A model generated the notes under the pieces. That model had not been told where the DNA came from. It made no database searches and saw nothing but the letters and a program-made list of their open reading frames with translations. From Escherichia phage A221, in sequence record ON862890.1: a stretch of DNA of 64,000 nucleotides. One strand, 5' to 3'. The translations under genes and the position numbers were made by a program. Each line of letters opens with the position of its first letter. The first letter of the stretch is position 1. Below, piece after piece: positions 21,582-60,311 of this stretch.

Positions 21582-21612
21582 CCCAGATTATTTTATTGAA
21601 TTACTTTACTTC

Positions 21613-21632
21613 TTCAATAACTCACGTATAAT
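21613..21632 (+). promoter_or_regulatory. TTCAATAA-N6-TATAAT promoter-like element
   Basis: cttcaataactcacgtataattc upstream of gene 21681; same box recurs at about 31835, 32095, 33094, 33116, 44591, 51063 and 56769. Confidence 0.4.
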
Positions 21633-31830: not shown

Positions 31831-31870
31831 ACATTTCAATAACGGGGCGAGAGGTATTATTGCCCTCTCT
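31831..31870 (+). repeat. TTCAATAA-hairpin cassette, copy 1
   Basis: tttcaataacggggcgagaggtattattgccc, about 90% identical to copy at 32091-32130. Confidence 0.7.
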
Positions 31871-31889
31871 ATTAATCGAGGAAATCACA

Positions 31890-32090
31890 ATGAGCCTGAA
31901 AGAAGATTCTGTAAACACCACAGTCGCCAACTCCACTTTCCGTGAGTGGCACGACGTATTATGCAAAGTCGCGAAAAGCCAGGGCGGTTCAGCCGCCGAC
32001 GCCGACGCCTGGCGTGATGATTACGAAGCAGGCAAGACCCCTCGCCAGTCTTGGGAAGATGAATGGGGTTGGGAAGAACAAGAAGGATAA
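31890..32090 (+). CDS. hypothetical acidic small protein
   Basis: ATG at M11 of track ORF (codon 1 TTG); gagga RBS; preceded by TTCAATAA-hairpin cassette. Confidence 0.35.
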   Translation: MSLKEDSVNTTVANSTFREWHDVLCKVAKSQGGSAADADAWRDDYEAGKTPRQSWEDEWGWEEQEG

Positions 32091-32130
32091 CAGTTTCAAT
32101 AACGGGGCGAGAGGTATTATTGCCCCGTCT
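32091..32130 (+). repeat. TTCAATAA-hairpin cassette, copy 2
   Basis: tttcaataacggggcgagaggtattattgccccgt with perfect ACGGGGC/GCCCCGT stem. Confidence 0.7.
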
Positions 32131-32150
32131 ACTTATCCGAGGGTTGTACC

Positions 32151-32375
32151 ATGTACTTGAAAAAGATCGTGAAGAAGCCGAAAGCCGGTGTTGCCGAGGT
32201 GTGCCTCATCGAGGTTTACGTTGATTCTTGTAACAATGAGCAGTGTTACTTCATGGTCGAGACGATGGTGTATGTTCCAGCCTCTCACCTGAACCGTGAT
32301 TTCGTCACAACCGAAAATGTCGTCCGCTGGGAGATTGCAACGCAGTCCGATATCGACGAACACAACATTCTTTGA
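32151..32375 (+). CDS. hypothetical protein
   Basis: 74 aa; ATG start; preceded by second copy of the TTCAATAA-hairpin cassette. Confidence 0.35.
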   Translation: MYLKKIVKKPKAGVAEVCLIEVYVDSCNNEQCYFMVETMVYVPASHLNRDFVTTENVVRWEIATQSDIDEHNIL

Positions 32376-32392
32376 AAGGAAGGATCTATATC

Positions 32393-32836
32393 ATGTGTGA
32401 TAAGAATTTCATTTTCATTAGTCCCGCCAAGAAACAGTTCTTCCGTAGCTCCGTTGGGGACAAGGTGGAAGGTTTCCGTAAATTCAAAGATTATCGCCTG
32501 GCATGCGGTGATGTTGATTTTCAGAGCTTCGACAATGATCGCCAGGATTTGAACGATGAGGGTTGGACAGAAGTTCCATCCCCACAGTTTATCGATGTCA
32601 AGCTGTACTACATGAAGGACAGTGGGAAGTATTATTCAGAGGGTGTGATCAAAATCAACCGTGGGGAGGCCGAGGCCGAACCTGCTAAGTCCTGGATGGA
32701 GACTGTGGATAAAATCCGCTATCTGCTCGACTCAGGCAATTTGCCTGGTTTGGTTAAAGGTGCCCGGTACGAGGTCTTCGTGACCGGAGAAGGGCATCCA
32801 GGTGGTTATCCACAACTGTTCCGCATTAACAACTGA
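32393..32836 (+). CDS. hypothetical protein
   Basis: ATG at M8 of track ORF (codon 1 TTG); RBS gaaaggaagg; 147 aa. Confidence 0.4.
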   Translation: MCDKNFIFISPAKKQFFRSSVGDKVEGFRKFKDYRLACGDVDFQSFDNDRQDLNDEGWTEVPSPQFIDVKLYYMKDSGKYYSEGVIKINRGEAEAEPAKSWMETVDKIRYLLDSGNLPGLVKGARYEVFVTGEGHPGGYPQLFRINN

Positions 32837-32844
32837 GGTCAAAC

Positions 32845-33081
32845 ATGATTATCAAAAAGATCGGCGCAAGTCCTCTCACTGGTACTATATTCCAGGGCAG
32901 GTTGAACACCAAAACCAGCATGTGGGTTGGTGAGAAGACCGACGTGACAGATGACTGTGTGGCAGCTGTAGCCGAACACTTGCGTCACATCAAGAAAGAC
33001 TATTGCTTCCCAACGACGGATGGTAAGTTTCTGGTGCTGAGCGCCGAGGTTCACGACACCCTTCCTGATCGCTTCAAATAA
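32845..33081 (+). CDS. hypothetical protein
   Basis: 78 aa; ATG with gagg RBS; tightly packed after previous gene. Confidence 0.4.
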   Translation: MIIKKIGASPLTGTIFQGRLNTKTSMWVGEKTDVTDDCVAAVAEHLRHIKKDYCFPTTDGKFLVLSAEVHDTLPDRFK

Positions 33082-33093
33082 ATTTTAAATTTA

Positions 33094-33180
33094 TTCAATA
33101 AACGGGGTTTAATTCTTCAATAAACCCCGTATACTTCATTCCATAAGCAGCACAACACTGACTTGAAATGAAGGAACTAT
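33094..33180 (+). repeat. dispersed repeat related to 21612-21677, with ACGGGGTTTA/TAAACCCCGT hairpin
   Basis: cttcaataa...cataagcag...acttgaaatgaaggaactat shares about 80% identity over about 66 bp with the leader of gene 21681. Confidence 0.55.
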
Positions 33181-39731: not shown

Positions 39732-40400
39732 ATGCAAGAGATCACTCTCTCCGAACGTACACTTCAGTTGCTGGCCAACTTTGAGACCATCAACCCATCT
39801 ATCGTTCTGACACCGGGCAAGATGCTGCGCAGTATTAATGATTCTTCTACTGTGATCGCCGTGGCGCAGATCGAAGAAGACTTCCCGTTTGAGTTCCCGA
39901 TTCTGGACCTGACCAAACTTCTGGCCATCCAGCGCCTACCTTCCTTCAAAGGTGCCAAAGCCGAATTCCATCAGGACTACATCCTGTTGAAAGGCGAAAG
40001 TTCTCAGCTGCAATTCTGGCGTTCTGCTAAAGAACTCACTGTTGTTCCGGCTGACACCATTGAACTACCGTCTGTCGACTTTGAAGCGATCATCACTCCA
40101 GAGAAGATGAAAGAACTGACCCGCGCCTGTTCTACCCTCGGACACAAGACTGTGCGCCTGGTTGCTCAGGGTGGCAAAACTCGCCTGGTTGCAACCACCA
40201 CTACCCTGGACAACTCCAACAACTACACTGTTGAGCTGGGTGAAACCGCGCTGCCGGACTTCGTAATGCCGCTGGATGTTGCCAACCTGAAAATGATCGA
40301 AGGCAACTACACTCTGCGTGCATGTGCTGATCTACAGATGGTGAACTTCCAATCATCCGACGCGACGATCAATTACTTCGTCGGCGCACAGATTGAGTAA
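39732..40400 (+). CDS. gp45: sliding clamp (T4 gp45-like)
   Basis: 222 aa; N-terminal LQLLANFETINPSIVL resembles gp45 LLKNFATINSGIML; followed by gp44/gp62/regA-like genes in T4 order. Confidence 0.8.
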   Translation: MQEITLSERTLQLLANFETINPSIVLTPGKMLRSINDSSTVIAVAQIEEDFPFEFPILDLTKLLAIQRLPSFKGAKAEFHQDYILLKGESSQLQFWRSAKELTVVPADTIELPSVDFEAIITPEKMKELTRACSTLGHKTVRLVAQGGKTRLVATTTTLDNSNNYTVELGETALPDFVMPLDVANLKMIEGNYTLRACADLQMVNFQSSDATINYFVGAQIE

Positions 40401-40481
40401 TCAATCTCCAGCCTGATGCTATAATGTGTGGGCGGGGGCGTTCCCCGCCTATTTGAAATGATTCTTCTACACGAGGCTGAA

Positions 40482-41471
40482 ATGTCTAATATCACAATTG
40501 TAAAAGACCAGTACGCTTGGGAAAACCGCTTCCGCCCTGACAACCTGGACGAGATTATCATCCCTCAAGACGTCCGCGCTAAAATCCATGGCTACATCAC
40601 CAGCGGTAACGGCAACATCCCGTCTATGCTGTTTTACTCCCCTCAGCCTGGTACTGGCAAGACCACTTCTGCTTTGGCCGTGTGTAATGAAATCGGTTGT
40701 AAGCAACCACTGATGATCAACGCATCCCTGGACAACAGCATTGACGTTATCCGTGACCGCGTGATTCAGTACTCTACTGGTGTGAGCGTATTCGGTGGCC
40801 GCAAAGTCGTTATCCTCGACGAAGTAGAGCGTCTGTCTATGGCGGCACAGGAGTCGCTGAAGGGTATTGTGGAGAAGGTCTCCAAGAACTGTTCATTCAT
40901 CCTGACCACCAACGCCAAGCAACGTGTGAACGAACCTCTGCGCTCTCGTTGCCGTGAAATCGACTTTATCTGGAATGAGACCGAGGCTGATGAGGTCAAA
41001 CTTCAGTTCATGCGCCGCTGTGCTGAAATCCTTCGCAGCGAAGGTGTTGAGTATGACCCTCCTGTGTTGGCTGCTATTGTCAAGCGCCATTTCCCTGATA
41101 ACCGCCGCATCATGGGTGTTCTACAGGATAACGTCACCACTTACGGCAAGATCGACGAACGTGCACTGGCTGTGTTAAAATCGGCCGATATGGGCATGTT
41201 GGTGAATATGTTGAAGGATAATGACTGGGCTGGGATGAAGCAGTGGGTGACCGACAACCAGAACTATATCACTGAAGACTTCTATTCCCGCTTCTTCCAG
41301 TTCTGTGTACCACAGGATAAAGAGAAGCAAATGTTGGTTCAGAATGAGTCTATCCCTGATCTGGTATGCGTGTGTGGTCAGTCTCAGATTGAACACCGTC
41401 AAGTCGGCGATGTCTGGCTGCATGCTGTGTTTTTCCTGACCAATGTCATGCTCAACATCAAGTGGAAGTGA
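40482..41471 (+). CDS. gp44: clamp loader large subunit (T4 gp44-like, AAA+)
   Basis: ENRFRPDNLDEIIIP...SPQPGTGKTT Walker A; VVILDEVERL Walker B; ATG 40482 fits gp44 N-terminal spacing (track start 40428 inside hairpin). Confidence 0.85.
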   Translation: MSNITIVKDQYAWENRFRPDNLDEIIIPQDVRAKIHGYITSGNGNIPSMLFYSPQPGTGKTTSALAVCNEIGCKQPLMINASLDNSIDVIRDRVIQYSTGVSVFGGRKVVILDEVERLSMAAQESLKGIVEKVSKNCSFILTTNAKQRVNEPLRSRCREIDFIWNETEADEVKLQFMRRCAEILRSEGVEYDPPVLAAIVKRHFPDNRRIMGVLQDNVTTYGKIDERALAVLKSADMGMLVNMLKDNDWAGMKQWVTDNQNYITEDFYSRFFQFCVPQDKEKQMLVQNESIPDLVCVCGQSQIEHRQVGDVWLHAVFFLTNVMLNIKWK

Positions 41472-41475
41472 TATT

Positions 41476-41898
41476 ATGGCCGCCCTTGGATTGTTCGATT
41501 ACCTGGCTGCTCTGAACAGCAGCAAAGAAAACCTTTTGCGGTCTGATGACCCAGAAGTGTTGAAAGGATTCGACCCGTTTATGACGCGGCGTGGTTTAGC
41601 TCAGAGCAAAGACACTCTAGTGGCTGCGCAACAGATGAATAAGCTACATGCTATCACTCCATGGATGCAATGGTCATATGCCTTTTACACCATTCCGGCT
41701 CGGAAACGCTACGACAAATGGTCTAAGAAAGGTCCGATTGATCCTGACGTGAAGTTACTCTCAGAGTACTTCTACATCAGCATGGAGAAGGCATCGGAGT
41801 ACGTCCGTTTCTTGCCGAAGGAAGTCCTGGCCGAGATACGCGAGAAGATGAGACGCACTGAGCTGAACGCCAAAGCGAAACCGCGCAAGGCTAAATAG
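41476..41898 (+). CDS. gp62: clamp loader small subunit (T4 gp62-like)
   Basis: PARKRYDKWSK resembles gp62 PRGKRYGKWAK; position after gp44; ATG 41476 with ggaag RBS preferred over 41443. Confidence 0.6.
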   Translation: MAALGLFDYLAALNSSKENLLRSDDPEVLKGFDPFMTRRGLAQSKDTLVAAQQMNKLHAITPWMQWSYAFYTIPARKRYDKWSKKGPIDPDVKLLSEYFYISMEKASEYVRFLPKEVLAEIREKMRRTELNAKAKPRKAK

Positions 41899-41927: not shown

Positions 41928-42392
41928 ATGGCGCGTAATACGCTAGACATATTGAATATTTCAGCAGTCAACGATGAGGCCAGCATCGTTGATTGTATGG
42001 TTGAAGTTCAATTGAACCAAGATCGGCCAGGTATATTCCTGGGGATCAAGGAAACACTGAGTCGAATTGGGGTAAACACGCGCCAAGAGCCGAATACTCT
42101 GTATCAGACTTGCCATATTCTTCATAAGTGTGGCAAGTATTATATCGTCCACTTTAAGCATCTATTTATGCTGGACGGGCATTACAACGGATTTAACCGC
42201 GAAGATGTCCTGAGGATGAACCGAATCATCAAACTGCTGGAGCAGTGGAACATGGTGAAGGTCATTCATCCTGAACAGGTCACCGAAGCAGCCGATATGT
42301 CTCGCATTAAAGTGGTTAAACACGATCAGGTTCCTGAATGGAAACTGGTTCCAAAATACATCATCCGGCCTACGAAGGCAAAAAGCGAATAA
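41928..42392 (+). CDS. regA: translational repressor RegA
   Basis: IKETLSRIGVN...LYQTCHILHKCGKYYIVHFKHLFMLDG and PEWKLVPKYIIR match T4 RegA signature segments. Confidence 0.8.
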   Translation: MARNTLDILNISAVNDEASIVDCMVEVQLNQDRPGIFLGIKETLSRIGVNTRQEPNTLYQTCHILHKCGKYYIVHFKHLFMLDGHYNGFNREDVLRMNRIIKLLEQWNMVKVIHPEQVTEAADMSRIKVVKHDQVPEWKLVPKYIIRPTKAKSE

Positions 42393-42408: not shown

Positions 42409-43281
42409 ATGACAACTACATTTTCCAAGAACGTGAATCTGAATCTGGCTTTCGGTAATGCAAAGGGCGACGTCACATCGCCCGACTTTGGTAAGATCCG
42501 CAATCAGGCGAAACTGGTGCTGGAAGAAACCCGTGAACTGCTGGAAGCGGCGTATTTCGACCACGAGGTGAAAATTGAGTTCACTGCATCTCCGCGAGTC
42601 CTGAAAGAACCCGTTGTTGTCGACATCAAAGACATTATGCGCCAGATCATGGATGCCCAGGGCGACATCACAACAGTCAACGACGGTGTGGCTCATATTG
42701 CTGGTTTCGACGGTGACGAATGTCTACAGCGCGTGTATGCCTCTAACATGAGCAAGTTCATCCGTAATGAAGGTGAAGTTGTGCCAGCACTGGATTACTA
42801 CTACAACAAAGGATTCCCACGCGAAAGTCTGCGCATCGAAGGGGAATTCCCTCAGGTGTGCATCAAAGTGGTAGACACCATCACTGTCGACGGCAAAGAG
42901 TACCCGGCTGGCAAGTTCCTGAAGAACATGGCAACCTTCAAAGAGCCTGACTTCTCTGATATGTTGACCGTCGAGCCTAAGCGCCAGATCACCGAAATCA
43001 TTCTGACGGGCACGGCCATTCCAGGCCAGCTCGGATGCAACGAACACGCTGGTGTTGCCTTCGCTCCGTTCGATTTTATTGACGAGATCATGGGATACAC
43101 CAAGATGGGCTTTCAGGCGTTCTCTGGCGAAACAGTCGAGAGCTACATTCCCGTGTTTGTTTTCAATGAAGACAACTTCCCAACTCTGCCGTTGATCTGG
43201 GGTGAATGGAAAGCCAACGTCCGTATCTATGTGGCCAGCCCAGTGCAATCATCTATCACCCAACTGACCCGTATCGATTAA
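42409..43281 (+). CDS. hypothetical protein (DNA-metabolism neighbourhood)
   Basis: 290 aa; N-terminal LVLEETRELLEAAY is a weak ExxE hint toward a MazG-like NTP pyrophosphatase, unconfirmed; followed by a terminator. Confidence 0.4.
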   Translation: MTTTFSKNVNLNLAFGNAKGDVTSPDFGKIRNQAKLVLEETRELLEAAYFDHEVKIEFTASPRVLKEPVVVDIKDIMRQIMDAQGDITTVNDGVAHIAGFDGDECLQRVYASNMSKFIRNEGEVVPALDYYYNKGFPRESLRIEGEFPQVCIKVVDTITVDGKEYPAGKFLKNMATFKEPDFSDMLTVEPKRQITEIILTGTAIPGQLGCNEHAGVAFAPFDFIDEIMGYTKMGFQAFSGETVESYIPVFVFNEDNFPTLPLIWGEWKANVRIYVASPVQSSITQLTRID

Positions 43282-43304
43282 GATATACAGTTATTCACTA
43301 AACA

Positions 43305-43332
43305 ACAGAGGCTATAATGGCCTCTGTTTTCG
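43305..43332 (+). terminator. intrinsic terminator-like hairpin
   Basis: ACAGAGGC-tataatg-GCCTCTGT followed by tttcgtatt. Confidence 0.55.
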
Positions 43333-43349
43333 TATTCTAAGAGGATACC

Positions 43350-44570
43350 ATGAAAGATAAAGCCCTAGACGTCCCGTACTGCGGTGTCCGTGAAGAAAAG
43401 ATAAAGTCGGCCAAACCGGTTCTCAGTCCGACCCATACCAGCCTGTCTTACGAATGGATGCGCGATCGTTATCAGATCCACGTCAAGAAGGACGTCCAGC
43501 GCCTTCCTGCTCCTTGGACTGATAATCCCATATTACGGCAGGTCAAGTTCTGTAACGTCCGGAGAGAGCACGACAGGCAGTCTCTCAACCTGATCAACAA
43601 CATCGTCAACAACGATGCTCTGGGTATGGCCGACAAGATGTTCAACTGCGTGATGTTTCGCATGTTCAACCTCTGGGATCCAATCCAGGCTATCGGCGGC
43701 GCGATGACGATCAAAGAATTCGCCGAGATCAACCTCGATGCAACCCGCGAACGACTTCAGAAGTTCGAGGCCGACGGCGGTAAGGTATTCACCAATGCCT
43801 TCAACACGGGCGGCCTGAAGCAATGCCTGGCTTTCCCTGAGCTGGTTGTCAACCACAAGGAGCAGCGCTTCGGTGGGATGATGGTGAATCTGATCTGTAA
43901 AGATGGTTCAACCCAGAACATGGATTATAAAGAAGCCAAGGCGATAGCCGAAGCAGAACCGGACTTCTACACCATCGAAGGTTGGGAACCGTACATGCCA
44001 ATGCGTGTCATCCGCTCCCTGAAGGCATTCGTCAACAAGTATCCAAATTACTTCCATGACCTGCTGCGCCTTGGTACTCCTTTGGAAGTATACCAGCGCA
44101 TGTATGACGACATCGAAGGGCTTGGTCCATTCCTGGCCTATCAGATCTGGGTAGACTTCACTTACATTCCTGAATATCCTTTCAGTGAGAACCACTTCAC
44201 GGTTGCTGGACCAGGCTGTCGCGCAGGGATCGACCTGATGTTCCAGGACAAAGATGGCATGACGCATGAAGAATGCATCTTCTGGTTGCGGGACAATCAG
44301 GACGCGGTTTATGGCCCTCTTGGGTATAACAGGGAAGAATTTTGGTCTGCGGAAGAGCCTTGGGATCAGTGTATGAATGTGATGAGCATCGAGAATATGG
44401 CATGTGAATTGTCGAAATATACTCGTTGTGTAGAGGCCATACAGCAAGGTAAAAAACCGCGCGGGAAGGTTGGATATGACGGCGGTGGGGAATACAAAAA
44501 GCGCTGTGATGAAGTCGTGCTCAAACGTGGTTCCGTCAATTTGCTGGACCGTTTGAAGAAACCTGAATAA
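43350..44570 (+). CDS. hypothetical protein (DNA-metabolism neighbourhood)
   Basis: 406 aa; no catalytic motif confidently recognised; flanked by hairpin terminators on both sides. Confidence 0.4.
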   Translation: MKDKALDVPYCGVREEKIKSAKPVLSPTHTSLSYEWMRDRYQIHVKKDVQRLPAPWTDNPILRQVKFCNVRREHDRQSLNLINNIVNNDALGMADKMFNCVMFRMFNLWDPIQAIGGAMTIKEFAEINLDATRERLQKFEADGGKVFTNAFNTGGLKQCLAFPELVVNHKEQRFGGMMVNLICKDGSTQNMDYKEAKAIAEAEPDFYTIEGWEPYMPMRVIRSLKAFVNKYPNYFHDLLRLGTPLEVYQRMYDDIEGLGPFLAYQIWVDFTYIPEYPFSENHFTVAGPGCRAGIDLMFQDKDGMTHEECIFWLRDNQDAVYGPLGYNREEFWSAEEPWDQCMNVMSIENMACELSKYTRCVEAIQQGKKPRGKVGYDGGGEYKKRCDEVVLKRGSVNLLDRLKKPE

Positions 44571-44590
44571 AGATTCCCTTTACTTCGTTC

Positions 44591-44620
44591 TTCAATAACT
44601 CAATCCAGCGTATATTGACC
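44591..44620 (+). promoter_or_regulatory. TTCAATAA box with TATATTGACC
   Basis: ttcaataactcaatccagcgtatattgacc upstream of gene 44685. Confidence 0.35.
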
Positions 44621-44684
44621 TCACTTAAACGAAGCGCCCTGGCAAACGGGGCGCACATTTGAACTGAAACAGGAAGATTACATC

Positions 44685-46703
44685 ATGTCAGATTTTAAGC
44701 CCTTCGCAGTAGCTGTCAACAATAACGTGCTGGCCATGTCAGCAACTGGTCTGTTCATGACCAACATCGATAAAGATGCTCTGTGGGATCTGTATCTGTC
44801 TTCTTTCCCTGCTGGCACTAACCCGCTTTATCGTGAGCGTACCGAGCACGACTGCACCTGCTGTAAACAATTCATCCGTAACATCGGCGGTGTGGTCACC
44901 ATCGACTCCGACCTGAACGTGATCTCTATTTGGGATAACATTCAGCTGGGTAACGAATACGACGTTGTCGCTGCGGCGCTGTCAGCGTATGTTAAGCAGC
45001 ACGCAATCGTCGACGTGTACTTCAACGACACCAAGAAAGTTGGTGTTGAGTCGAATCACGAAATGAAAGACGGTATTGTCCGCACCTACAACCACTTCCA
45101 CACCGACCTGCTGGGCAGCTATGTTCTGCGGGCAGATACCATCGCTTCTAAGAAGGGTGAAATCCGCCAGGCGATTGAAGTGTTTGAGCGCGGCCTGCGT
45201 GAACTGTCTCTGGAATCGGCTGAAATCGTTCTTGAATTGATTGACCAGAATTCTCTGTATCGCGGTGAAGAGCACAAAGAGGCAGTGCAGGCGTTCGTGG
45301 TGAACAAGACCCTGTACGAACAAACTGCAGAAGAGAAACGCGCTCTGTGGGCTTGGCGCACTGGCTACCGTGCAAACGGTCATACCCCTCACGGCATTCG
45401 TAATACCGTGATTGGCTCTCTGCTGGTAGACCTCAATGAAGGCCGGGATCTGGAAACCGCCGTGAAGTCCTTTGAAGCCAAAGTCGCTCCGACGAACTAC
45501 AAGCGCCCAACCGCGCTGGTCACGAAGTCGATGATTGAAAACGCGCAGAAAGAAGTCGAAGCGCTGGGTCTGACTGATTCACTGGGTCGCCGTTATGCCG
45601 TGTATGACGATCTGACCATCAACAACGTTCTGTTCGCCGATCTGGCAGCTCAGAAGAAGATGGACCCGTTTGCTCAGCTGGCGTCTGAAGTGAAGACTCC
45701 GACCAAGTCCCTGGACAAGGTTGAAGAGATCACGATCGACGACTTCCTGACCAACGTGTTGCCAAAGGCGCATTCCCTGGAAGTACTGGTTGAAAACTCT
45801 CACATTGGCAACCTGATGTCCCTGATCGCTCCGGCTACCGCAGGCGCTCCTAACCTGTTCAAGTGGAACAACGGCTTCAGCTGGTCTTACAATGGCGAAG
45901 TGGCCGACTCTATCAAAGAGCGCGTAAAGACCGCAGGCGGCAATGTCGACAGTTTCCTCCGTGTGTCACTGGCTTGGCATAACAACGACGACCTGGATCT
46001 GAGCATGAACGATCCTCTTCACAACCACGTGTATTATCACAACCGTCGTTCGACAACTGGCGCAACTCTGGACATCGACATGAACGGTATGGACGGCATT
46101 GATCCAAACCGCCGTCCGGTGGAGAACATCTTCTTCAGCGATGAACGCAAGCTGCGTGATGGTCTGTACGAGTTCTATGTCACTAACTTCAGCCAGCGTG
46201 AAACCTGTGATATGGGATTCGAAATCGAAGTTGAATACAAAGGCCAGACCAAGCGTTTTTCGCATCCTGGCCTGAAGCACAAAGATCGCACTCTGGCTGT
46301 TGTGATTGATGTCCGCGCTGGACAAGTGGTAGACATCCGTTCTACCCTGAAAGACGACGCTCGCTCTCAGGAAATCTGGGGCATCAAGACCTCCGTCTTC
46401 CAGAAGGTACAGCTGGTTCTGAACTCACCAAACCATTGGGACGGCGAGCAGACTGGCAACAAGCACGTGTTCTTCATCCTGGAAGGTTGTGCTAACCCTG
46501 TCGGCACCCGTGGTTTCTATAACGAATATCTGAAGCCGGAACTTGATAAACACCGCAAGGTTTTTGAAATGTTAGGTGGTAAGATTAAAGTACAGCCAAG
46601 CACTGAGCAGCTGTCCGGTCTGGGCTTCTCTACCACCCAACGCAACCACGTGTTCGTGAAGGTGAGCGGCTCGTTCAACCGCACTGTGAAAGTTGTGTTC
46701 TAA
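44685..46703 (+). CDS. hypothetical protein with N-terminal Cys cluster
   Basis: 672 aa; HDCTCCKQF cysteine cluster; no P-loop; preceded by TTCAATAA-N12-TATATTGACC element and hairpin. Confidence 0.4.
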   Translation: MSDFKPFAVAVNNNVLAMSATGLFMTNIDKDALWDLYLSSFPAGTNPLYRERTEHDCTCCKQFIRNIGGVVTIDSDLNVISIWDNIQLGNEYDVVAAALSAYVKQHAIVDVYFNDTKKVGVESNHEMKDGIVRTYNHFHTDLLGSYVLRADTIASKKGEIRQAIEVFERGLRELSLESAEIVLELIDQNSLYRGEEHKEAVQAFVVNKTLYEQTAEEKRALWAWRTGYRANGHTPHGIRNTVIGSLLVDLNEGRDLETAVKSFEAKVAPTNYKRPTALVTKSMIENAQKEVEALGLTDSLGRRYAVYDDLTINNVLFADLAAQKKMDPFAQLASEVKTPTKSLDKVEEITIDDFLTNVLPKAHSLEVLVENSHIGNLMSLIAPATAGAPNLFKWNNGFSWSYNGEVADSIKERVKTAGGNVDSFLRVSLAWHNNDDLDLSMNDPLHNHVYYHNRRSTTGATLDIDMNGMDGIDPNRRPVENIFFSDERKLRDGLYEFYVTNFSQRETCDMGFEIEVEYKGQTKRFSHPGLKHKDRTLAVVIDVRAGQVVDIRSTLKDDARSQEIWGIKTSVFQKVQLVLNSPNHWDGEQTGNKHVFFILEGCANPVGTRGFYNEYLKPELDKHRKVFEMLGGKIKVQPSTEQLSGLGFSTTQRNHVFVKVSGSFNRTVKVVF

Positions 46704-46747: not shown

Positions 46748-47119
46748 ATGTTTGATAAAGCAACCCGTATGAAACTGCGCTTCGAGTCTAACAAAGGTCT
46801 GCTGTCTGTTGAGCAGGTCTGGGACCTGAGCCTGACTGCCCTGAACGAAATGGCGAAAGGTCTGAGCCGTCAGGTGAAAGCAGCAGAAACCGATGAAGAA
46901 GATTTCATTGGCACCAAAAGCAACGTTGACTCCGAACTGCAGCTGCGCTTCGACGTTGTCAAGCACATCATCGGCGTTAAGCTGAAAGAACGTGACGACA
47001 GCAGAGACGCGGCAGAGCGTAAGGCGAACAACCAGATTATCCTGGAGCTGATCCAGCGTAAGAAACAGCAAGAGCTGGAAAGCAAATCTGTTGAAGAACT
47101 GGAAGCGCTGCTGAAATAA
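46748..47119 (+). CDS. hypothetical acidic coiled-coil protein
   Basis: 123 aa; ATG start; followed by CCCCGC/GCGGGG terminator. Confidence 0.4.
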   Translation: MFDKATRMKLRFESNKGLLSVEQVWDLSLTALNEMAKGLSRQVKAAETDEEDFIGTKSNVDSELQLRFDVVKHIIGVKLKERDDSRDAAERKANNQIILELIQRKKQQELESKSVEELEALLK

Positions 47120-47143: not shown

Positions 47144-47169
47144 CCCCGCCATGTGCGGGGTTTCTTTTG
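47144..47169 (+). terminator. intrinsic terminator
   Basis: CCCCGC-catgt-GCGGGG followed by tttcttttgg. Confidence 0.6.
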
Positions 47170-47179
47170 GACAAAGAAT

Positions 47180-47590
47180 ATGAAACCTGTTATATGTGAT
47201 TACTGCGGCCTCCCAGCCGAATTCGTCGGTGGTGATGTTCTCTACCCTCATCGCCCTGACCTCCGCAATCTGAAGTTCTGGGTGTGCACTCCATGTGATG
47301 CCCGTGTCGGTTGCCATACCCATGGCGACGGCAGACAACCTTTGGGAAGGATGGCGAATGCCGCTCTCCGTGCTGCTAAGCAGGAAGCCCATAGATCGTT
47401 TGACCCATTGTGGAAAAGCGGAGAGAGGAGCAGGAGCGACGCTTATAGTTGGCTGGCGCATAAGCTGGGGATAAAGAAGCGTGAGTGTCATATTGGCTTG
47501 TTCGATATCGACATGTGCCGTAAAGTAGTTGTTGTCTGTCAACAATACGAGGCACATATCAATGTCAAAGGAAATACAAGAAGCGTTTGA
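47180..47590 (+). CDS. zinc-ribbon protein (DUF3268-like)
   Basis: ATG at M10 of track ORF (codon 1 GTG inside terminator stem); CDYCG...CTPCDARVGCH cysteine pattern. Confidence 0.4.
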   Translation: MKPVICDYCGLPAEFVGGDVLYPHRPDLRNLKFWVCTPCDARVGCHTHGDGRQPLGRMANAALRAAKQEAHRSFDPLWKSGERSRSDAYSWLAHKLGIKKRECHIGLFDIDMCRKVVVVCQQYEAHINVKGNTRSV

Positions 47591-48261: not shown

Positions 48262-48432
48262 ATGACAGAACCATTCAAGAAAGCTGGTCTAGACACCATC
48301 GACCTCAGCTTTAAACCGAGCGAAACGCTGATGAGTCAGATTGAACTCAATCGCGACTTCCTTGAATATATGCTGGTCAAGCCGGAAGGTGAGGCCGAAG
48401 ACAACCCTGAAGAAGGCAATAACGATGATTGA
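48262..48432 (+). CDS. small acidic protein (56 aa), translationally coupled to vWA gene
   Basis: Not in track; hand translation MTEPFKKAGLDTIDLSF...EGNNDD; stop TGA overlaps vWA start in ATGATTGA arrangement. Confidence 0.3.
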   Translation: MTEPFKKAGLDTIDLSFKPSETLMSQIELNRDFLEYMLVKPEGEAEDNPEEGNNDD

Positions 48433-50626
48433 ATCATTAGAATTTAAGAATGCGGTTGCGACTGCTGCCCCGTCCAACCATGTAATCGTTGTAGACATTT
48501 CTGGCTCTATGTACCGTGCACTCCCTGAAGTCCGTAAGCATCTGAAGGAGAACCTGCCTTCCCTGGTGAAACCGGAAGACACTGTGAGTGTTCTATACTT
48601 CTCATCTCGTGGCGACTTTGGCACTGTGTTCGCTGGTCGCCAGGTTAGTGCTGCGTCTGACCTGAGCGAGCTGAACAAACTGATCGACCGCTTCCTACAA
48701 CCATCTGGCTGTACTGGTTTTGTTGAGCCGTTGAAACTGGCGATGGACACTGCTCGTGGCCTGAAGAAGCCTGGCTATGTCAACAACCTGGCGTTCATGA
48801 CTGACGGGTATGACAACTGCTGGCGTACCAACGAAATTCTACTGGTTGCTGAGACCCTGCCATTTGCTTTCGATAACATTACATTTATCGAATATGGCTG
48901 GTACTGTAACCGCGAACTGCTGGCGCAGATGGCCGAACGCTCTGGTGCTACTCACGTGTTTGCCGAAGGTCAGACCGAATACCAGACCGAGCTGGAAAAC
49001 GTGCTGAAGTCATCAGTGCCGAAGGTGGTTGTTGATGTGCCTCTGTTATACACCCATGCTATCTATGTTGAAAACGGCGTAGCAACTGTTCTGGCGGTAC
49101 AGCCGGATGAAGACCATCCTATCGGCCACGTGAGCATCCCTGAGAGCGTCACCAAGCTGTGGGTTGTAAACCCTAACATGATCGACCAGATGGATAGCCT
49201 GACGGACATCCAGGCGGCATACGTGCTGGCGTTCTACGGCGTACACATCATGGACGCGGACCTGGTGTGGGCTGCACTGAAGAAAACGGGTGACGTTCGC
49301 TTCATCAAACAGTACAGCAACTGCTTCACCAAGCAGGACTACTCCAACATCAAGAACGATCTGGTTCAGGCGATTGTTGACGACCAGCTGCGCGGCGTTG
49401 ACGGTATTGACTATGACCTGGTTCCAGCTGAAGATGCGACCACCGTCGTTGATGTGCTGACGTACCTGGCTGAAGCTGGTGTGCCTGTTGCTACCAAGCA
49501 TCCGATGTTCTCCTATAAGAGCATCGGGCGCGGTACTGTGCAGAAAACCGACGACACCGAAGACAAGCTGGCAGAACAGATCGCGAATGCTCAGTCCAAA
49601 GAAGAGCGTAAAGCCCTGGCTCTCAAGCTGGCAGAGCACGAAGAGTGGAACCCGACGTTCGAACCTACCAACGACCTGGGTGTTGTGCCAATCAGCGATT
49701 TGGTCTATAACTCCGAGCGCCCGAACATCAGTGTGCGTACAATTCAACACGGTACTGTGGCTGTGCCTGAATTCGCACAGAAGAAGTTTGGCCTGCCTGA
49801 AGAACTGGATACTTTCCAGTGGCGCAACTACACCATCGTCAAAGACGGTATCATTAACGTGAAGACTCTGCCGTTCAAGGCTGATATCGAAGTTGTACAG
49901 AAGCTGATCGAAATGGGTGTCCACGTGTTTGGTGGTCCGGAAGTGTTCATCCTGAACCTGGAAAGCGTACCGCTGGTCAACCGCGCCATGGTCAAAAACA
50001 TCAGTGCTGCTCAGTTCTTTGCGGATAATGTCCGTCTGGAAGCCCTGAAAGGCAAGCAGAAGGTGCTGAAGTTCTATCGAGACGCCCTGGTTGGTAAGGG
50101 CAACGCCAAAGGCCTGGCAGTACAGTACGGCGCTGAGGCGGCCGAGTTCCTGTCCTCCTACGGCATCCGCGATTACGGCTTCTCACCGAAGACTGAGACC
50201 AAAGAGTCTACCGACTTCTACATGAGCCGTGAGCTGAACGTGAAGATCGCTGGCGCTTCTTCTCTACCGTCTATCGCAGCGGTACAGAAGAAGATTGCCG
50301 AGAACAAGAAACTCAATGCTGGTGACTTGTTCATCGCCAATGCGCTGAAGGAGTACGAAGCATTCGTGAAGTCTCCTATGATCACTGCCGTGCCTGAAGC
50401 CTTACAGAAACAGCTGATCGAAAACTGGATCGACGCTGCTGCCAAGGCGGCCATCACCGAAGTCCGTGCCCTGAACAAGACACTGTCTAAAGTGGTGTAT
50501 GGTATCGTTGCTGGCCACGGCTGGTTCACCGACCTCGACCTGGAAGAGTCCACCATGGAAGTTGAAGTGGATGGCGTGAAGTACAAGGTCACTGCCGAAC
50601 TGACAGAGAAAGAAATCAAAATCTAA
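48425..50626 (+). CDS. von Willebrand factor A (vWA) domain protein
   Basis: ATG at M29 of track ORF (codon 1 TTG); VVDISGSM MIDAS motif (DxSxS) and downstream MTDGYDN; about 500-aa C-terminal extension of unknown function. Confidence 0.6.
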   Translation: MIESLEFKNAVATAAPSNHVIVVDISGSMYRALPEVRKHLKENLPSLVKPEDTVSVLYFSSRGDFGTVFAGRQVSAASDLSELNKLIDRFLQPSGCTGFVEPLKLAMDTARGLKKPGYVNNLAFMTDGYDNCWRTNEILLVAETLPFAFDNITFIEYGWYCNRELLAQMAERSGATHVFAEGQTEYQTELENVLKSSVPKVVVDVPLLYTHAIYVENGVATVLAVQPDEDHPIGHVSIPESVTKLWVVNPNMIDQMDSLTDIQAAYVLAFYGVHIMDADLVWAALKKTGDVRFIKQYSNCFTKQDYSNIKNDLVQAIVDDQLRGVDGIDYDLVPAEDATTVVDVLTYLAEAGVPVATKHPMFSYKSIGRGTVQKTDDTEDKLAEQIANAQSKEERKALALKLAEHEEWNPTFEPTNDLGVVPISDLVYNSERPNISVRTIQHGTVAVPEFAQKKFGLPEELDTFQWRNYTIVKDGIINVKTLPFKADIEVVQKLIEMGVHVFGGPEVFILNLESVPLVNRAMVKNISAAQFFADNVRLEALKGKQKVLKFYRDALVGKGNAKGLAVQYGAEAAEFLSSYGIRDYGFSPKTETKESTDFYMSRELNVKIAGASSLPSIAAVQKKIAENKKLNAGDLFIANALKEYEAFVKSPMITAVPEALQKQLIENWIDAAAKAAITEVRALNKTLSKVVYGIVAGHGWFTDLDLEESTMEVEVDGVKYKVTAELTEKEIKI

Positions 50627-52264: not shown

Positions 52265-52714
52265 ATGTTCCTTACATCTTTTATTGACTGGTTGAACATC
52301 ATTAACGGCCTGAGGATTCCTGTTGGGAACCTCGGGCTTTCTCGTTCTTCTATGCCGCAAATCGATGCCGACAAACAAGAAGATTTTCACAAATATCTTG
52401 AAGACAACGGCGTGTCCATAGATGCTGTGCAAGTGCCCATCAAAATGCTTCGTCTCACCCAGAACGAAATCAACAAGATGAAGGTCTGGAAGATCATGAA
52501 GAACATCAGAAATAAGAAACCTATGGGTCGAGTTTGGGTGTCTTCTGACAATTACGTTGTTGACGGTTCTCACCGATTTGTCGCTGCGTTGAACATGGAC
52601 GGCAAACAGCGCATGAAGGTCTACAAAGTTGATTTGCCAGCGATGGAATTTGTTAAACTCGCTAAACAGTTTCAGGGTGTGCGATACAGAACGGTCTCAG
52701 ATTCGAGATACTAA
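52265..52714 (+). CDS. ParB-like nuclease domain protein
   Basis: 149 aa; VVDGSHRFVAA matches the ParB/Srx DGxHR motif. Confidence 0.5.
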   Translation: MFLTSFIDWLNIINGLRIPVGNLGLSRSSMPQIDADKQEDFHKYLEDNGVSIDAVQVPIKMLRLTQNEINKMKVWKIMKNIRNKKPMGRVWVSSDNYVVDGSHRFVAALNMDGKQRMKVYKVDLPAMEFVKLAKQFQGVRYRTVSDSRY

Positions 52715-52715
52715 T

Positions 52716-53549
52716 ATGGACGTCTATTCAGAACTTATCGAAATAGGAGCGAAACGTCATTTCGTAAACAAATATCTTTCGCTCATTTCTTCTTTTAGTC
52801 ATTACCAAGGCGTCGGGGAGAAGCATCACATATTACCTGTGGCATTGTTCCCCGAATATGCCACGGAATACGAAAACATCGTCAAACTGCCTCATAGGGT
52901 TCATTATATTGCCCATGTGTGTCTTGCTCTTGCGTTACCAGGTTCATGTATGGTAAATGCGATTATGATTTTGAAGCGGTTAGATAGTAGAGTCAACTCA
53001 CACCTGTTTGCGAAAATGCGCAAGAGATTCGCCGAAAGGCTTTCTGTGGTGAATGCAGGGGAAAATAATCCCATGTATGGCAAGAAGAGATCCCAGAAGG
53101 CAAAGAAAAAGACCTCGGAGTCTCTTAGAAATTTTTATAAATCTAAAAGAAAAGAAGATCCAGATTTAAAAGAATTTTTCTCGGAAAGGAATTCTAAAAT
53201 AAAACGGGGAAAAGATCACCATTCTTATGGGAATAAATTGACCAATAATCTTACTCCAGAACAAGAACGATGTAGAATAGAATCGGTCACCAAGACTTCC
53301 CGTGAAACCATGCCCTGGGAGAAGCCAAGATGGAAACCAGAAAGGGACAAATGGTGGTGTTGGGCTGCACATATACACTATCACATATTGAAAGGTAAGA
53401 CGAGAGGGGAAGCCCTGAAACAAGTATTCGGTTCCAATGACGCAGAAATTTGGGCACAGGTTCGGCCAATTATTCTACGGTTGGATAACGGTTGGGACCC
53501 TTTAACTTGCGAAAAATGGGTTAATCGTTATGGGGTGGAATACCAGTAA
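52716..53549 (+). CDS. HNH homing endonuclease with NUMOD3-like motifs
   Basis: ATG at M30 of track ORF; HHILPVALFPEYATEYENIVKLPHRVHYIAH HNH core; two NPMYGKK / HHSYGNK NUMOD3-like repeats; starts 1 nt after ParB-like gene stop. Confidence 0.75.
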   Translation: MDVYSELIEIGAKRHFVNKYLSLISSFSHYQGVGEKHHILPVALFPEYATEYENIVKLPHRVHYIAHVCLALALPGSCMVNAIMILKRLDSRVNSHLFAKMRKRFAERLSVVNAGENNPMYGKKRSQKAKKKTSESLRNFYKSKRKEDPDLKEFFSERNSKIKRGKDHHSYGNKLTNNLTPEQERCRIESVTKTSRETMPWEKPRWKPERDKWWCWAAHIHYHILKGKTRGEALKQVFGSNDAEIWAQVRPIILRLDNGWDPLTCEKWVNRYGVEYQ

Positions 53550-58974: not shown

Positions 58975-59738
58975 TAACCCGCAACGAAGGACAGATGGCA
59001 CTTGACATTCGGTTCCAACGACGTCACAGAAACCGTCATATTGTCCGTATCTTGGCTGAAGTCAATGGTGGCGAGAGGTTTGGTCTGAATATGGTTGTAG
59101 ACACTGTAGATCAGATCCTCGCCACGATACCCTACCTTCCCGTCGGTGTCTTGCCAATGACCCAGTGTCTCATCGTAGACATGCACTCTGAACTCGATCA
59201 TATGGAAGAGTGCCTTGGGGATGTCCTTGAGTACGCTGGTGCCAACCACGGGAATTTCTATGCTGGAATCATTGGAGTTCCCTTCATAGACCGAAGCCCA
59301 TGCAAAGGTAGGATCACCCCCAGCAACAGGGGTTCGCTTCCAGTATTGGAATTCTGGGTTGCCCGAAGCGTTCTTCTGAAGTAGAATGACCTCACCACCT
59401 TTGAAGTTCGAGGTATCGATGTCGCCTCGCTGAAGTTCATCTGCTGGAGATCCAATAAATTTCCAGCCTTCGCGATCCAGTAAAGACTTATAATAGTCGG
59501 TGAACACGTTGCTGTCTTCTGCATCGTTGATGGCATCTTTGAGACCTTGGCCTGTCACCATCTCGTTGAGCTTCAACCACATGTTCTTGACAGCAGAAGC
59601 TGCTGCGACTTGTCCAGCAGTCCCACCTGCAGCATAATCATAGATGATATCTTCTGACTTGATAGCATCATAGATAGAGAGGAGCAATTGCTCAATCTGC
59701 GGGGCGGTGAGACTGAAACGATATGCGCGGGGTGCCAT
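58971..59738 (-). CDS. hypothetical protein
   Basis: Minus strand; ATG at 59738 with aagagg RBS (track start 59897 would overlap the RNase H start); 255 aa. Confidence 0.4.
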   Translation of the reverse strand: MAPRAYRFSLTAPQIEQLLLSIYDAIKSEDIIYDYAAGGTAGQVAAASAVKNMWLKLNEMVTGQGLKDAINDAEDSNVFTDYYKSLLDREGWKFIGSPADELQRGDIDTSNFKGGEVILLQKNASGNPEFQYWKRTPVAGGDPTFAWASVYEGNSNDSSIEIPVVGTSVLKDIPKALFHMIEFRVHVYDETLGHWQDTDGKVGYRGEDLIYSVYNHIQTKPLATIDFSQDTDNMTVSVTSLEPNVKCHLSFVAGY

Positions 59739-59783
59739 AGTTTCATTCCTCTTTCTATAAAACCAGTTTGGGATATTTATATC

Positions 59784-60311
59784 ATGATAGAAATTTATTC
59801 TGACGGGGGTTCTAACCCGAAGACCAACCAGGCCGCAGGATGGGCATTTGTCATCAGGCCAATAACGGGTATGCAATGGAAGGTGTTCTTCGGTCATCTA
59901 CCTCCCCCGTCCACTAACAATATCGCCGAGTTGTTGGGTGTGACCAACGCATTGAAGCTACTGTGGGCATTCTCAGGAAAGGGTGAGCGCAGAATACCAA
60001 AGGCAACAATTTGGTCTGACAGCCAATATGCTATCAAGAGCGTCACCGAATGGCGAGCGAAGTGGGAGTATCAGGGTTTCCCAGAAAAGAACGTTGAACT
60101 CATCAAAGATCTGTTCAGAATCTATGATCTCGTTTGTTCAATTTGTGATGTTGAACTAAAATGGGTTAAGGGTCATGCGGGGCACGAAGGCAACGAACTT
60201 GCCGATGACTGGGCCACAGCAGCCAAAAACGACAGCAACTTCCTGATTGAGAATGACAAGATCTCGGTGAAGAAGGTTGTTGGATCTTTTGATGAATTTA
60301 TCGGTATCTGA
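59784..60311 (+). CDS. rnhA: ribonuclease HI (bacterial RnhA type)
   Basis: ATG at M33 of track ORF; IYSDGG, NNIAELLG, IWSDSQY, KWVKGHAGHEGNELAD match RNase HI catalytic motifs. Confidence 0.8.
   Translation: MIEIYSDGGSNPKTNQAAGWAFVIRPITGMQWKVFFGHLPPPSTNNIAELLGVTNALKLLWAFSGKGERRIPKATIWSDSQYAIKSVTEWRAKWEYQGFPEKNVELIKDLFRIYDLVCSICDVELKWVKGHAGHEGNELADDWATAAKNDSNFLIENDKISVKKVVGSFDEFIGI

Follow-up and report, generated by a model that had tools for sequence, protein, structure and literature searches.

A gene block beside the replication genes of Escherichia phage A221 probably combines two thymidine-hypermodification genes with a separate DUF8224 module

Next to its replication genes, the DNA of Escherichia phage A221 carries three large open reading frames (ORFs) on the plus strand, ORF1, ORF2 and ORF3, which encode 290, 406 and 672 amino acids and lie 3′ of the genes for the sliding clamp, gp44/gp62 and regA. 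We analysed them (positions 42409-46703) within a window of 64,000 nucleotides from sequence record ON862890.1. In the explanation that we consider likely, this stretch holds two functional units: ORF1 and ORF2, which belong to the thymidine hypermodification of ViI-like phages, and ORF3, which forms a unit with a following gene for a 123-amino-acid protein. ORF1 is assigned to the MazG-type nucleoside triphosphate (NTP) pyrophosphohydrolases and ORF2 to the HMUDK_hel family. An earlier sequence-only reading of the window had called the three proteins unassigned, and this does not hold, as RefSeq labels ORF1 homologues MazG-like and published lists count ORF2 homologues among hypermodification genes. 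The finding itself is ordinary, because both publications and RefSeq annotation already contain these assignments, in one place or the other. What is new is a clamp-type tail that the DNA polymerase shares with three hypermodification enzymes, and the ORF2 family as a candidate for the thymine-forming step of the pathway.

With 98.6% identity to Escherichia phage PC3 and 92% to Shigella phage Ag3, the window comes from an Ackermannviridae (ViI-like) phage. All three ORFs are real genes, because their homologues are numerous (hundreds to thousands for each) and the order clamp-44-62-regA-ORF1-ORF2-ORF3-123-amino-acid gene is maintained across Ackermannviridae. They lie at 42409-43281, 43350-44570 and 44685-46703 and have exactly the lengths given in the sequence-only reading, which had rightly seen no P-loop in them, as the Walker A motif is absent from ORF1-3. 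Its suggestion that they encode enzymes of nucleotide metabolism or DNA hypermodification stood for ORF1 and ORF2 and failed for ORF3, which belongs to a DUF8224 module. Among the families that it had named as candidates, MazG was borne out by ORF1 through a broad profile (A5), PHROG and the homologue gp206 of phage PhiW-14. For aGPT-Pplase and 5-HMUDK the outcome was divided: ORF2 is an HMUDK_hel protein and the orthologue of gp160, listed as 'aG/PT-PPlase1', but there was no match to ADDT and ORF1-3 are not kinases. Glycosyltransferases found no counterpart, either as families in the Pfam, PHROG and NCBIfam results or among the fold matches.

ORF2 matches Pfam HMUDK_hel (PF18723) over residues 30-365 with 273.1 bits (cut-off 25; E = 3e-81), a family to which PhiW-14 gp72 and a kinase fusion protein from an uncultured phage (contig L034) also belong. 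It is 82% identical over 407 amino acids to ViI gp160 (Vi01_130c, orf00160), and the gene order is alike in the two phages. Its fold is of the helix-hairpin-helix (HhH), DNA-glycosylase-like kind, as in gp46 of phage PaMx11 (PUGT), a glycinyltransferase acting on 5-phosphomethyl-deoxyuridine (5-PmdU). Members of the family keep company with kinases. On four distant contigs (L030-L033) the HMUDK_hel gene directly follows the genes for a gp243-like kinase and a gp247-like transferase; on L031-L033 the DNA polymerase gene lies just 5′, and genes for a gp67-like (HMUD1) kinase, a thyA-like protein, a deoxynucleoside monophosphate kinase and a dUTPase are near. The L034 fusion (L034:4644-6524) is a single ORF of 626 amino acids that begins with HMUDK_hel and ends with an HMUD1-type P-loop kinase, the opposite of the domain order in SP10 gp186 (PMC5889632, PMC8989533). 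There seem to be two pairs of kinase and HhH protein, HMUD2 with ADDT and HMUD1 with HMUDK_hel. We regard the family, the fold and the kinase linkage of ORF2 as established.

A candidate active site lies near the end of the folded part, in the motif E348-N349-M-A-C352-E353-L-S-K356. Residues N349, C352, E353 and K356 are invariant in the ORF2 family even when PhiW-14 gp72 is added to the alignment, and the other invariant positions of that alignment are the GPG of the hairpin, D75, D269 and E308. The order E-N-x-x-C-E resembles the E243-T244-x-x-C247 motif of gp46 (PMC11472151) and the E222-T223-x-x-C226 motif of 15599 Pplase2 (PMC13458397), and we infer from this resemblance an equivalence that is reached without a significant alignment. 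ORF2 had no hit to Pfam ADDT (PF18724) at E <= 0.1, and hhalign comparisons of its family with ViI gp247 and with an alignment of seven ADDT sequences, global as well as local, gave nothing significant except in the tail. Searches of PDB sequences with an ORF2 profile, and of the PDB with the single sequence (phmmer), returned nothing useful. The equivalence of the active sites thus rests on a short motif, because the profile similarity to ADDT is not significant, and two observations weigh against it: the family has no significant profile similarity to ADDT beyond the tail, and E348 is a serine in PhiW-14 gp72.

What reaction might such a protein carry out? Lee et al. 2018 list ViI gp160 as 'aG/PT-PPlase1' and report that five lysates, of gp67, gp160, gp226, gp243 and gp247, jointly turn DNA containing 5-hydroxymethyl-deoxyuridine (5-hmdU) into DNA containing 5-(2-aminoethoxy)methyl-deoxyuridine (5-NeOmdU) (PMC5889632). 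In the later work of the same group, gp67 and gp243 are 5-hmdU DNA kinases, purified gp247 alone, without gp160, transfers serine to 5-PmdU DNA and so makes O-SerT, and gp226 decarboxylates the serinylated product, while gp160 is given no role (Lee et al. 2021, PMC8989533). The ORF2 homologue of the close relative SW16-7 is already among the listed thymidine-modification genes (PMC10458263). The virion DNA of ViI, PhiW-14, SP10 and M6 is free of 5-hmdU, and the share that is not hypermodified becomes thymine (Lee et al. 2021, PMC8989533). In the literature searched we found no enzyme assigned to this thymine-forming step, no assignment of the ORF2 reaction and no published single-enzyme assay of the gp160 family. 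To our knowledge, the enzyme that makes thymine from residual 5-hmdU has been unknown since about 1980.

Because the ORF2 family is paired with kinases and the thymine step is without an assigned enzyme, we propose that this family most likely converts 5-PmdU to thymine. ORF2 would act on DNA after replication, flip out the base and take as its substrate the 5-PmdU made by 5-hmdU DNA kinase. It would use the invariant Cys352/Glu353 dyad, in a chemistry that we infer, and its product would be thymine, formed from those 5-PmdU residues that are left unserinylated. Counting against this, the thymine-forming role is so far a proposal. It is also possible, if doubtful, that ORF2 is a second ADDT-like group-transfer enzyme, which would attach a different nucleophile to 5-PmdU or would serve other sequence contexts with the same one. 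The fold shared with gp46/PUGT and the transferase-like Cys-Glu motif would suit such an enzyme, as would two further observations: SP10 makes alpha-glutamylthymine and the only HhH protein listed for it is the HMUDK_hel domain of gp186 (Lee et al. 2018, Table 3, PMC5889632), and loci L034-L040 have HMUDK_hel but no ADDT gene nearby. However, 5-NeOmdU is the only hypermodified base reported for ViI and is explained by gp247, the kinase and gp226, and ORF2 has no sequence similarity to the donor pocket of ADDT.

ORF1 would act earlier, on the nucleotide pool. It matches phrog_2144 (E = 2.5e-131) and phrog_671 (E = 4.6e-20), which carry the labels MazG-like and nucleotide pyrophosphohydrolase. 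A narrow profile of ORF1 (A3) had no match in the PDB; only the broadened A5, made from diverse homologues in Ackermannviridae, an N4-like phage, Pseudomonas, Xanthomonas and PhiW-14 phages, succeeded, with matches to DR2231 (E = 4.6e-6 to 2e-4, and 4.6e-6 to 5e-5 for 2yeu/5i0m) and weaker ones to SSO3215, 2yxh, E. coli MazG and YpjD. The invariant residues of ORF1 are E40, E43, D82, D86 and S112-N113-x-x-K116; the pairs E40/E43 and D82/D86, which are kept in nine sequences down to 32% identity, align with the metal-binding motifs EExxE and ExxD of DR2231. The PhiW-14 homologue gp206 (31% identity, E = 9e-9 with ORF1 as query) exceeds the Pfam cut-offs for PRA-PH (30.5 against 21.3 bits) and MazG (26.8 against 22 bits), and its gene, like ORF1 in the window, stands a few genes downstream of clamp-44-62-regA. 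The sequence profiles thus assign ORF1 to the DR2231-like, MazG-type all-alpha fold of NTP pyrophosphohydrolases. The C-terminal extension that follows this core is missing in some lineages: the homologues of L027, L030 and Pectobacterium phage CB1 have no more than 182-191 amino acids. Comparisons by hhalign of an ORF1 profile with the single sequences of ViI MazG gp11 and dUTPase gp63 were uninformative.

By analogy, the substrate of ORF1 is most likely dUTP and/or dTTP, which it would hydrolyse to the monophosphate so that 5-hmdUTP replaces dTTP in replication; the substrate is judged from relatives, and the dTTP-clearing role is not secure. That a dTTPase/dUTPase opens the way for 5-hmdUTP has been demonstrated in phage 15599 (PMC13458397). 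Several observations weigh against this assignment. ORF1 by itself has no Pfam match even at E <= 10, no NCBIfam match and no match in the PDB (phmmer); a dUTPase_2-type enzyme of ViI, encoded next to thyA, could be the dTTPase; and homologues of ORF1 occur in N4-like phages without hypermodification genes in the 10-kb stretch examined, so that the link between ORF1 and hypermodification is not obligatory. ORF1 could be a MazG of general house-cleaning or counter-defence, directed at non-canonical deoxynucleoside triphosphates or signalling nucleotides and unrelated to thymidine replacement. We think this rather unlikely. In its favour, Pseudomonas phages and the N4-like phages of Pectobacterium and Klebsiella have homologues as stand-alone genes for 182 amino acids among unrelated genes, and ViI has two further MazG/dUTPase-type genes, but ORF1 is conserved beside replication genes in two independent 5-hmdU lineages, Ackermannviridae and PhiW-14, and its nearest solved relative is DR2231.

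The C-terminus of ORF2 points to a link with the sliding clamp. In the ORF2 model the predicted local distance difference test (pLDDT) score is below 50 at residues 379-397, and a short helix is then predicted at 398-402, inside the terminal peptide GSVNLLDRLKKPE; across the family the linker is divergent and the terminal peptide conserved. In ViI the DNA polymerase ends in RRVNLLSMMGKKG, the kinase gp243 in SSVSLLGLMRKA, the transferase gp247 in TSVNLMSLLKR and gp160 in GSVNLLDRLKKPE. When the last 16 residues of all stop-to-stop ORFs of the whole ViI genome were compared, the motif was found in 6 of 1232 tails: these four, a protein of 70 amino acids and one unannotated ORF. The ORF2 tail is the sole VNLL-type tail in the window. 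A metagenomic contig whose proteins are 97-100% identical to those of the window from the clamp to ORF1 and for ORF3 (80% for ORF2) has the same tails on its kinase and transferase.

The tails change together from lineage to lineage. On L031-33 the kinase, the transferase and the HMUDK_hel protein all end in (K/R)(K/R)LW, and on L030 all three enzymes have hydrophobic, aromatic ends of the type V/L-x-D-x-F. PhiW-14, an independent lineage with a T4-type clamp, has one motif common to five C-termini: those of the polymerase (VAKLGAFFV), gp33 (TTSLGGFAAT), the kinase gp37 (THGLGGFFKG), the putrescine transferase gp109, an ADDT protein (TTGLGSFFR), and the HMUDK_hel protein gp72 (TTTLAQFAP). Only 7 of 942 ORF tails of this phage have the motif, and the remaining two belong to the putative exonuclease gp32 and the NrdA.1-like gp98.

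The T4 proteins gp43, gp33 and gp55 bind the clamp through C-terminal peptides that follow flexible linkers and can replace one another (PMC2988020), and T4 alpha-glucosyltransferase binds the clamp gp45 (PMC13216743). From the sharing of the motif and its co-variation among lineages, we predict that ORF2 and the other enzymes of its pathway are clients of the clamp, and that the linker and GSVNLLDRLKKPE would tether ORF2 to gp45, whose gene lies 3 kb upstream. No mention of shared tails or of clamp coupling was found in the hypermodification literature searched. The prediction can be joined to the proposed chemistry: in hypermodifying phages with a T4-type replisome, the kinase, the amino-acid or polyamine:DNA transferase and the HMUDK_hel protein would ride the clamp behind the fork by means of polymerase-like tails, and the ORF2 family would make thymine from the remaining 5-PmdU with Cys352/Glu353 and a reductant. 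We put this joint statement forward tentatively, as one more apt to fail in some part than to hold throughout.

Three observations do not favour the clamp. ViI gp33 and the gp55-like protein of the window are without the VNLL motif, the L034 fusion has no such tail, and the polymerase tail of L031-33 (KVNVFSFIKK) differs from the KKLW of the three enzymes. The shared tail might therefore bind something other than the clamp, such as a scaffold, the clamp loader or a single-stranded DNA-binding protein, or might be a signal for degradation or localisation. Besides the first and the last of these observations, the composition of the ViI-type motif is in keeping with a different partner, since it is hydrophobic and basic, unlike the hydrophobic and acidic T4 peptides. 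Even so, we hold a different partner to be unlikely: the motif is found on the polymerase in ViI and PhiW-14 and on gp33 in PhiW-14, which are canonical clients of T4-type clamps (PMC2988020), and a divergent disordered linker followed by a terminal peptide is the architecture of T4 gp55.

Some other carriers deserve mention. The 70-amino-acid carrier of ViI is Vi01_049c (phrog_4789; L002:30355-30567, minus strand), which ends in DKVNLLSLMRK and, to judge from this tail, could be a small clamp-binding regulator or competitor. The genes for gp32 and gp98 of PhiW-14, whose tails are of the form LG(G/A)FF, lie at L150:26496-27356 and L151:26189-26488, and because these two proteins carry the tail, the list of putative clamp clients in PhiW-14 is wider than the replication and modification enzymes. 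An RNase H homologue at 59688-60311 of the window ends in VGSFDEFIGI, which is hydrophobic and acidic and closer to the T4 type than to VNLL; there may be more than one class of clamp peptide in this phage.

A further alternative concerns the catalytic role of ORF2 itself. The protein could be a non-catalytic partner of the HMUD1-type 5-hmdU kinase that recognises DNA, flips bases and chooses which 5-hmdU is phosphorylated. This is what the Pfam name 'helical domain' implies, and fusions to the kinase are found in both orders (L034, and SP10 gp186 according to Lee et al. 2018 and 2021). Moreover, the kinase domain of SP10 is active alone (PMC8989533), and the helical domain would therefore be accessory to phosphorylation. 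We nevertheless judge a purely supporting role to be improbable, since the invariant Cys-Glu dyad together with D75, D269 and E308 across very distant members suggests catalysis, and since in Ackermannviridae the ORF2 gene is separate and far from the gene for the gp67 kinase. Conversion of 5-PmdU to thymine by ORF2 is the hypothesis that we prefer.

The second unit is of another kind. All close and distant homologues of ORF3 bear a precomputed label for DUF8224 (PF26675); ORF3 itself had no Pfam match in the copy searched, which contains no PF26675 model, and NCBIfam and PADLOC yielded none. DUF8224 comprises 4715 clusters at 50% identity and 558 cultured-phage records, spread over Ackermannviridae, N4-like, phiCbK-like, Bacillus, Vibrio and cyanophage genomes. 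Of 80 fetched DUF8224 loci, which come from very diverse phages, 74 have the 123-amino-acid gene; it is the immediate downstream neighbour on the same strand in 46 of the 48 clustered cases, with a median gap of 18 nucleotides. No other recurrent neighbour was seen at DUF8224 loci, and within 7 kb of the 73 loci outside Ackermannviridae there was no ORF1, no ORF2 and no ViI hypermodification gene of any kind. ORF3 and the 123-amino-acid gene are an autonomous module and not part of hypermodification. That the three ORFs form one operon of hypermodification or nucleotide metabolism, with ORF3 as a further modification enzyme, is very improbable in spite of their tight and conserved order in Ackermannviridae and the conserved His/Cys site of ORF3, given those 73 loci, the presence of DUF8224 in N4-like, phiCbK-like, Bacillus and cyanophage genomes, the distant ORF2 homologues in contexts without DUF8224, and the mobile genes often inserted between ORF2 and ORF3.

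The Cys cluster of ORF3 (HDCTCCKQF) noticed in the sequence-only reading is present, and C57 and C60 are at least 90% conserved among 64 homologues; it is a putative metal site. The AlphaFold2 model of ORF3 (pLDDT 89.6) gave only immunoglobulin-like noise in Foldseek against the PDB, and the ORF3 profile had no match in the PDB. A beta-sandwich of ORF3 is probably TerD-like and Ca2+-binding. As a best guess, the module may act early in infection, in metal-dependent binding or regulation. A match of ORF3 to BacB (phmmer against the PDB, E = 0.026) was judged to be due to chance, and the label 'DNA-directed RNA polymerase' on a few records of homologues is unsupported by any search. We also rejected the idea, suggested by a von Willebrand factor A (vWA) gene of the window and by locus L005, that genes for a vWA protein or an AAA ATPase accompany DUF8224: a protein with a metal-ion-dependent adhesion site (MIDAS) motif was found within 7 kb in 0 of 73 non-Ackermann loci, an upstream P-loop gene at one locus only, and the vWA protein of the window has no link to DUF8224 outside Ackermannviridae. 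The ORF3 orthologue of ViI is annotated as two coding sequences of 491 and 183 amino acids (Vi01_128c and Vi01_129c; L003:301-2320), which is one ORF of 672 amino acids in the window and nearly all relatives; the split is either a frameshift or a sequencing error.

The hairpins that had been said to separate the ORFs are indeed there, one in each intergenic gap, although the count of terminator-like hairpin sites in the region is not above chance. The TTCAATAA box, also reported from the sequence, is present in the spacer between ORF2 and ORF3 and has 10 copies in the window against 2.46 expected (at least 10 in 0 of 100 shuffles). Its sites include 21593-21620, 31835-33123, 44591, 51063, 53575 and 56769; they lie chiefly in intergenic spacers and are at times paired, often with a GC-rich hairpin or a GTATAAT-like element on the 3′ side. 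The box may be a phage-specific promoter or other regulatory element.

As the sequence-only reading had observed, the polymerase gene that T4 has at this place is absent: tblastn with the ViI polymerase found none in the 64-kb window, and the ViI kinases gp67 and gp243 had no tblastn match there either. The DNA polymerase gene and the other hypermodification genes are outside the 64 kb, and the kinase genes are present on a near-identical contig. The clamp of the window matches Pfam gp45-slide_C weakly (E = 0.002, below the cut-off). Coordinates of the features are collected in Table 1. In a comparison with L001, L009, L010, L013, L016 and L019, the window lacks insertions of about 0.7-1.3 kb that relatives have between the clamp and gp44 (40400-40428 in the window) and between ORF2 and ORF3 (44571-44684). 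The annotation of phages Marshall and Maynard places an HNH homing endonuclease inside the ORF1-ORF3 stretch, and the window has an ORF with a NUMOD3 motif at 52629-53549; the block from the clamp to ORF3 looks like a hot spot for mobile endonuclease genes. On the 3′ side of the ORF3 block are genes for a DUF3268 zinc-finger protein (47153-47590) and the vWA-domain protein of 761 amino acids (48341-50626), followed by a gene whose counterparts in PC3 and ViI are annotated as acyl carrier protein.

Table 1. Features of the ORF1-ORF3 stretch and the adjoining replication genes, in window coordinates.
Feature	Position	Strand	Basis
gp45-type sliding clamp, proposed docking partner of the ORF2 tail	39732-40400	+	PC3/ViI annotation; synteny with gp44/gp62/regA
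Clamp loader, gp44 and gp62	40428-41471 (gp44), 41443-41898 (gp62)	+	Pfam Phage_clamp_A; phrog_225; PC3/ViI annotation
regA translational repressor	41928-42392	+	Pfam Translat_reg, E = 2.1e-34
ORF1 core, residues 1-190, MazG-type all-alpha NTP pyrophosphohydrolase domain	42409-42978	+	PHROG and profile matches
ORF1 C-terminal extension, residues 191-290, variable	42979-43281	+	No family match outside phrog_2144
Terminator-like hairpin, ORF1-ORF2 gap	43304-43328	+	11-bp stem, 3-nucleotide loop, T-rich tail
ORF2, HMUDK_hel-family HhH protein, putative DNA base-modifying enzyme, ViI gp160 orthologue	43350-44570	+	
ORF2 candidate active-site motif, residues 348-356	44391-44417	+	Alignment including PhiW-14 gp72
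ORF2 linker, residues 371-393, disordered, sequence-variable	44460-44528	+	pLDDT 42-57; length and sequence vary in alignment
ORF2 tail GSVNLLDRLKKPE, proposed sliding-clamp-binding peptide	44529-44567	+	Motif sharing; co-variation among lineages
TTCAATAA box, ORF2-ORF3 spacer	44591-44598	+	Motif count
GC-rich hairpin GCGCCC...GGGCGC, 5′ of ORF3	44634-44654	+	Direct sequence reading
ORF3, DUF8224 (PF26675) protein	44685-46703	+	phrog_1735; precomputed Pfam label on homologues
ORF3 N-terminal His/Cys site, HDCTCCKQF, residues 55-63	44847-44873	+	
ORF3 probable TerD-like beta-sandwich, residues ~420-560, conserved acidic motifs NNDDLD, LDIDMN, VEN	45942-46364 (approximate)	+	
Gene for 123-amino-acid partner (phrog_2018)	46748-47119	+	Co-occurrence at DUF8224 loci

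The ORF2 family, with ViI gp160 and PhiW-14 gp72, is kept in the hypermodifying lineages examined (Ackermannviridae, PhiW-14 and several uncultured contigs), and pairing it with the missing thymine step makes it a directly testable candidate. The tails shared with the polymerase in ViI and PhiW-14, and with gp33 too in PhiW-14, predict that the clamp links hypermodification with replication. If true, this coupling would account for the processing of tens of thousands of bases before packaging, and it would matter for the engineering of hypermodification pathways in heterologous hosts. ORF3 and its 123-amino-acid partner are among the more abundant phage gene pairs of no assigned function.

Set beside known systems, ORF2 has no material difference from ViI gp160, with the same neighbours and the same C-terminal tail. 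It stands further from PaMx11 gp46/PUGT and the other ADDT transferases (PF18724, formerly aGPT-Pplase2), ViI gp247 among them, to which it has no significant sequence or profile similarity: it is about 100 residues larger, has a beta-hairpin insert at 178-209 and lacks recognisable donor-pocket residues, and its family pairs or fuses with the HMUD1 kinase and not, like theirs, with HMUD2. About 85 residues of the ORF1 profile align with DR2231 of Deinococcus radiodurans, at E of about 1e-5 and with the family profile only; the SN(L/M)SK motif and the metal-binding helices with ExxE and (E/D)xxD fall within the aligned part. DR2231 is a dUTP-specific enzyme; ORF1 differs from it by an extra beta-rich segment (residues ~120-190) and a C-terminal domain of 100 amino acids. 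The role proposed for ORF1 is like that of gp18 of Acinetobacter phage 15599, which removes dTTP and dUTP so that 5-hmdUTP is incorporated (PMC13458397), and like the dTTPase activity of PhiW-14. In PhiW-14 gp206, as in gp18, the pyrophosphatase domain is the C-terminal part of a longer protein. TerD, the Ca2+-binding beta-sandwich of tellurite resistance (2kxt, 2qz7), has no sequence-level match to ORF3, which differs from it in its length of 672 amino acids, three further domains, a dedicated 123-amino-acid partner and a context other than a ter operon.

The closest parallel for the tails is provided by the clamp clients of T4, in which a flexible linker likewise leads to a short terminal peptide that the cognate polymerase has too, and T4 alpha-glucosyltransferase is a precedent for a post-replicative DNA-modifying enzyme on the clamp (PMC13216743). 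The systems differ in that the peptide here is VNLLxxL(K/R)K, whereas that of T4 is hydrophobic and acidic, and in that three sequential enzymes of the pathway carry the tail here and one does in T4.

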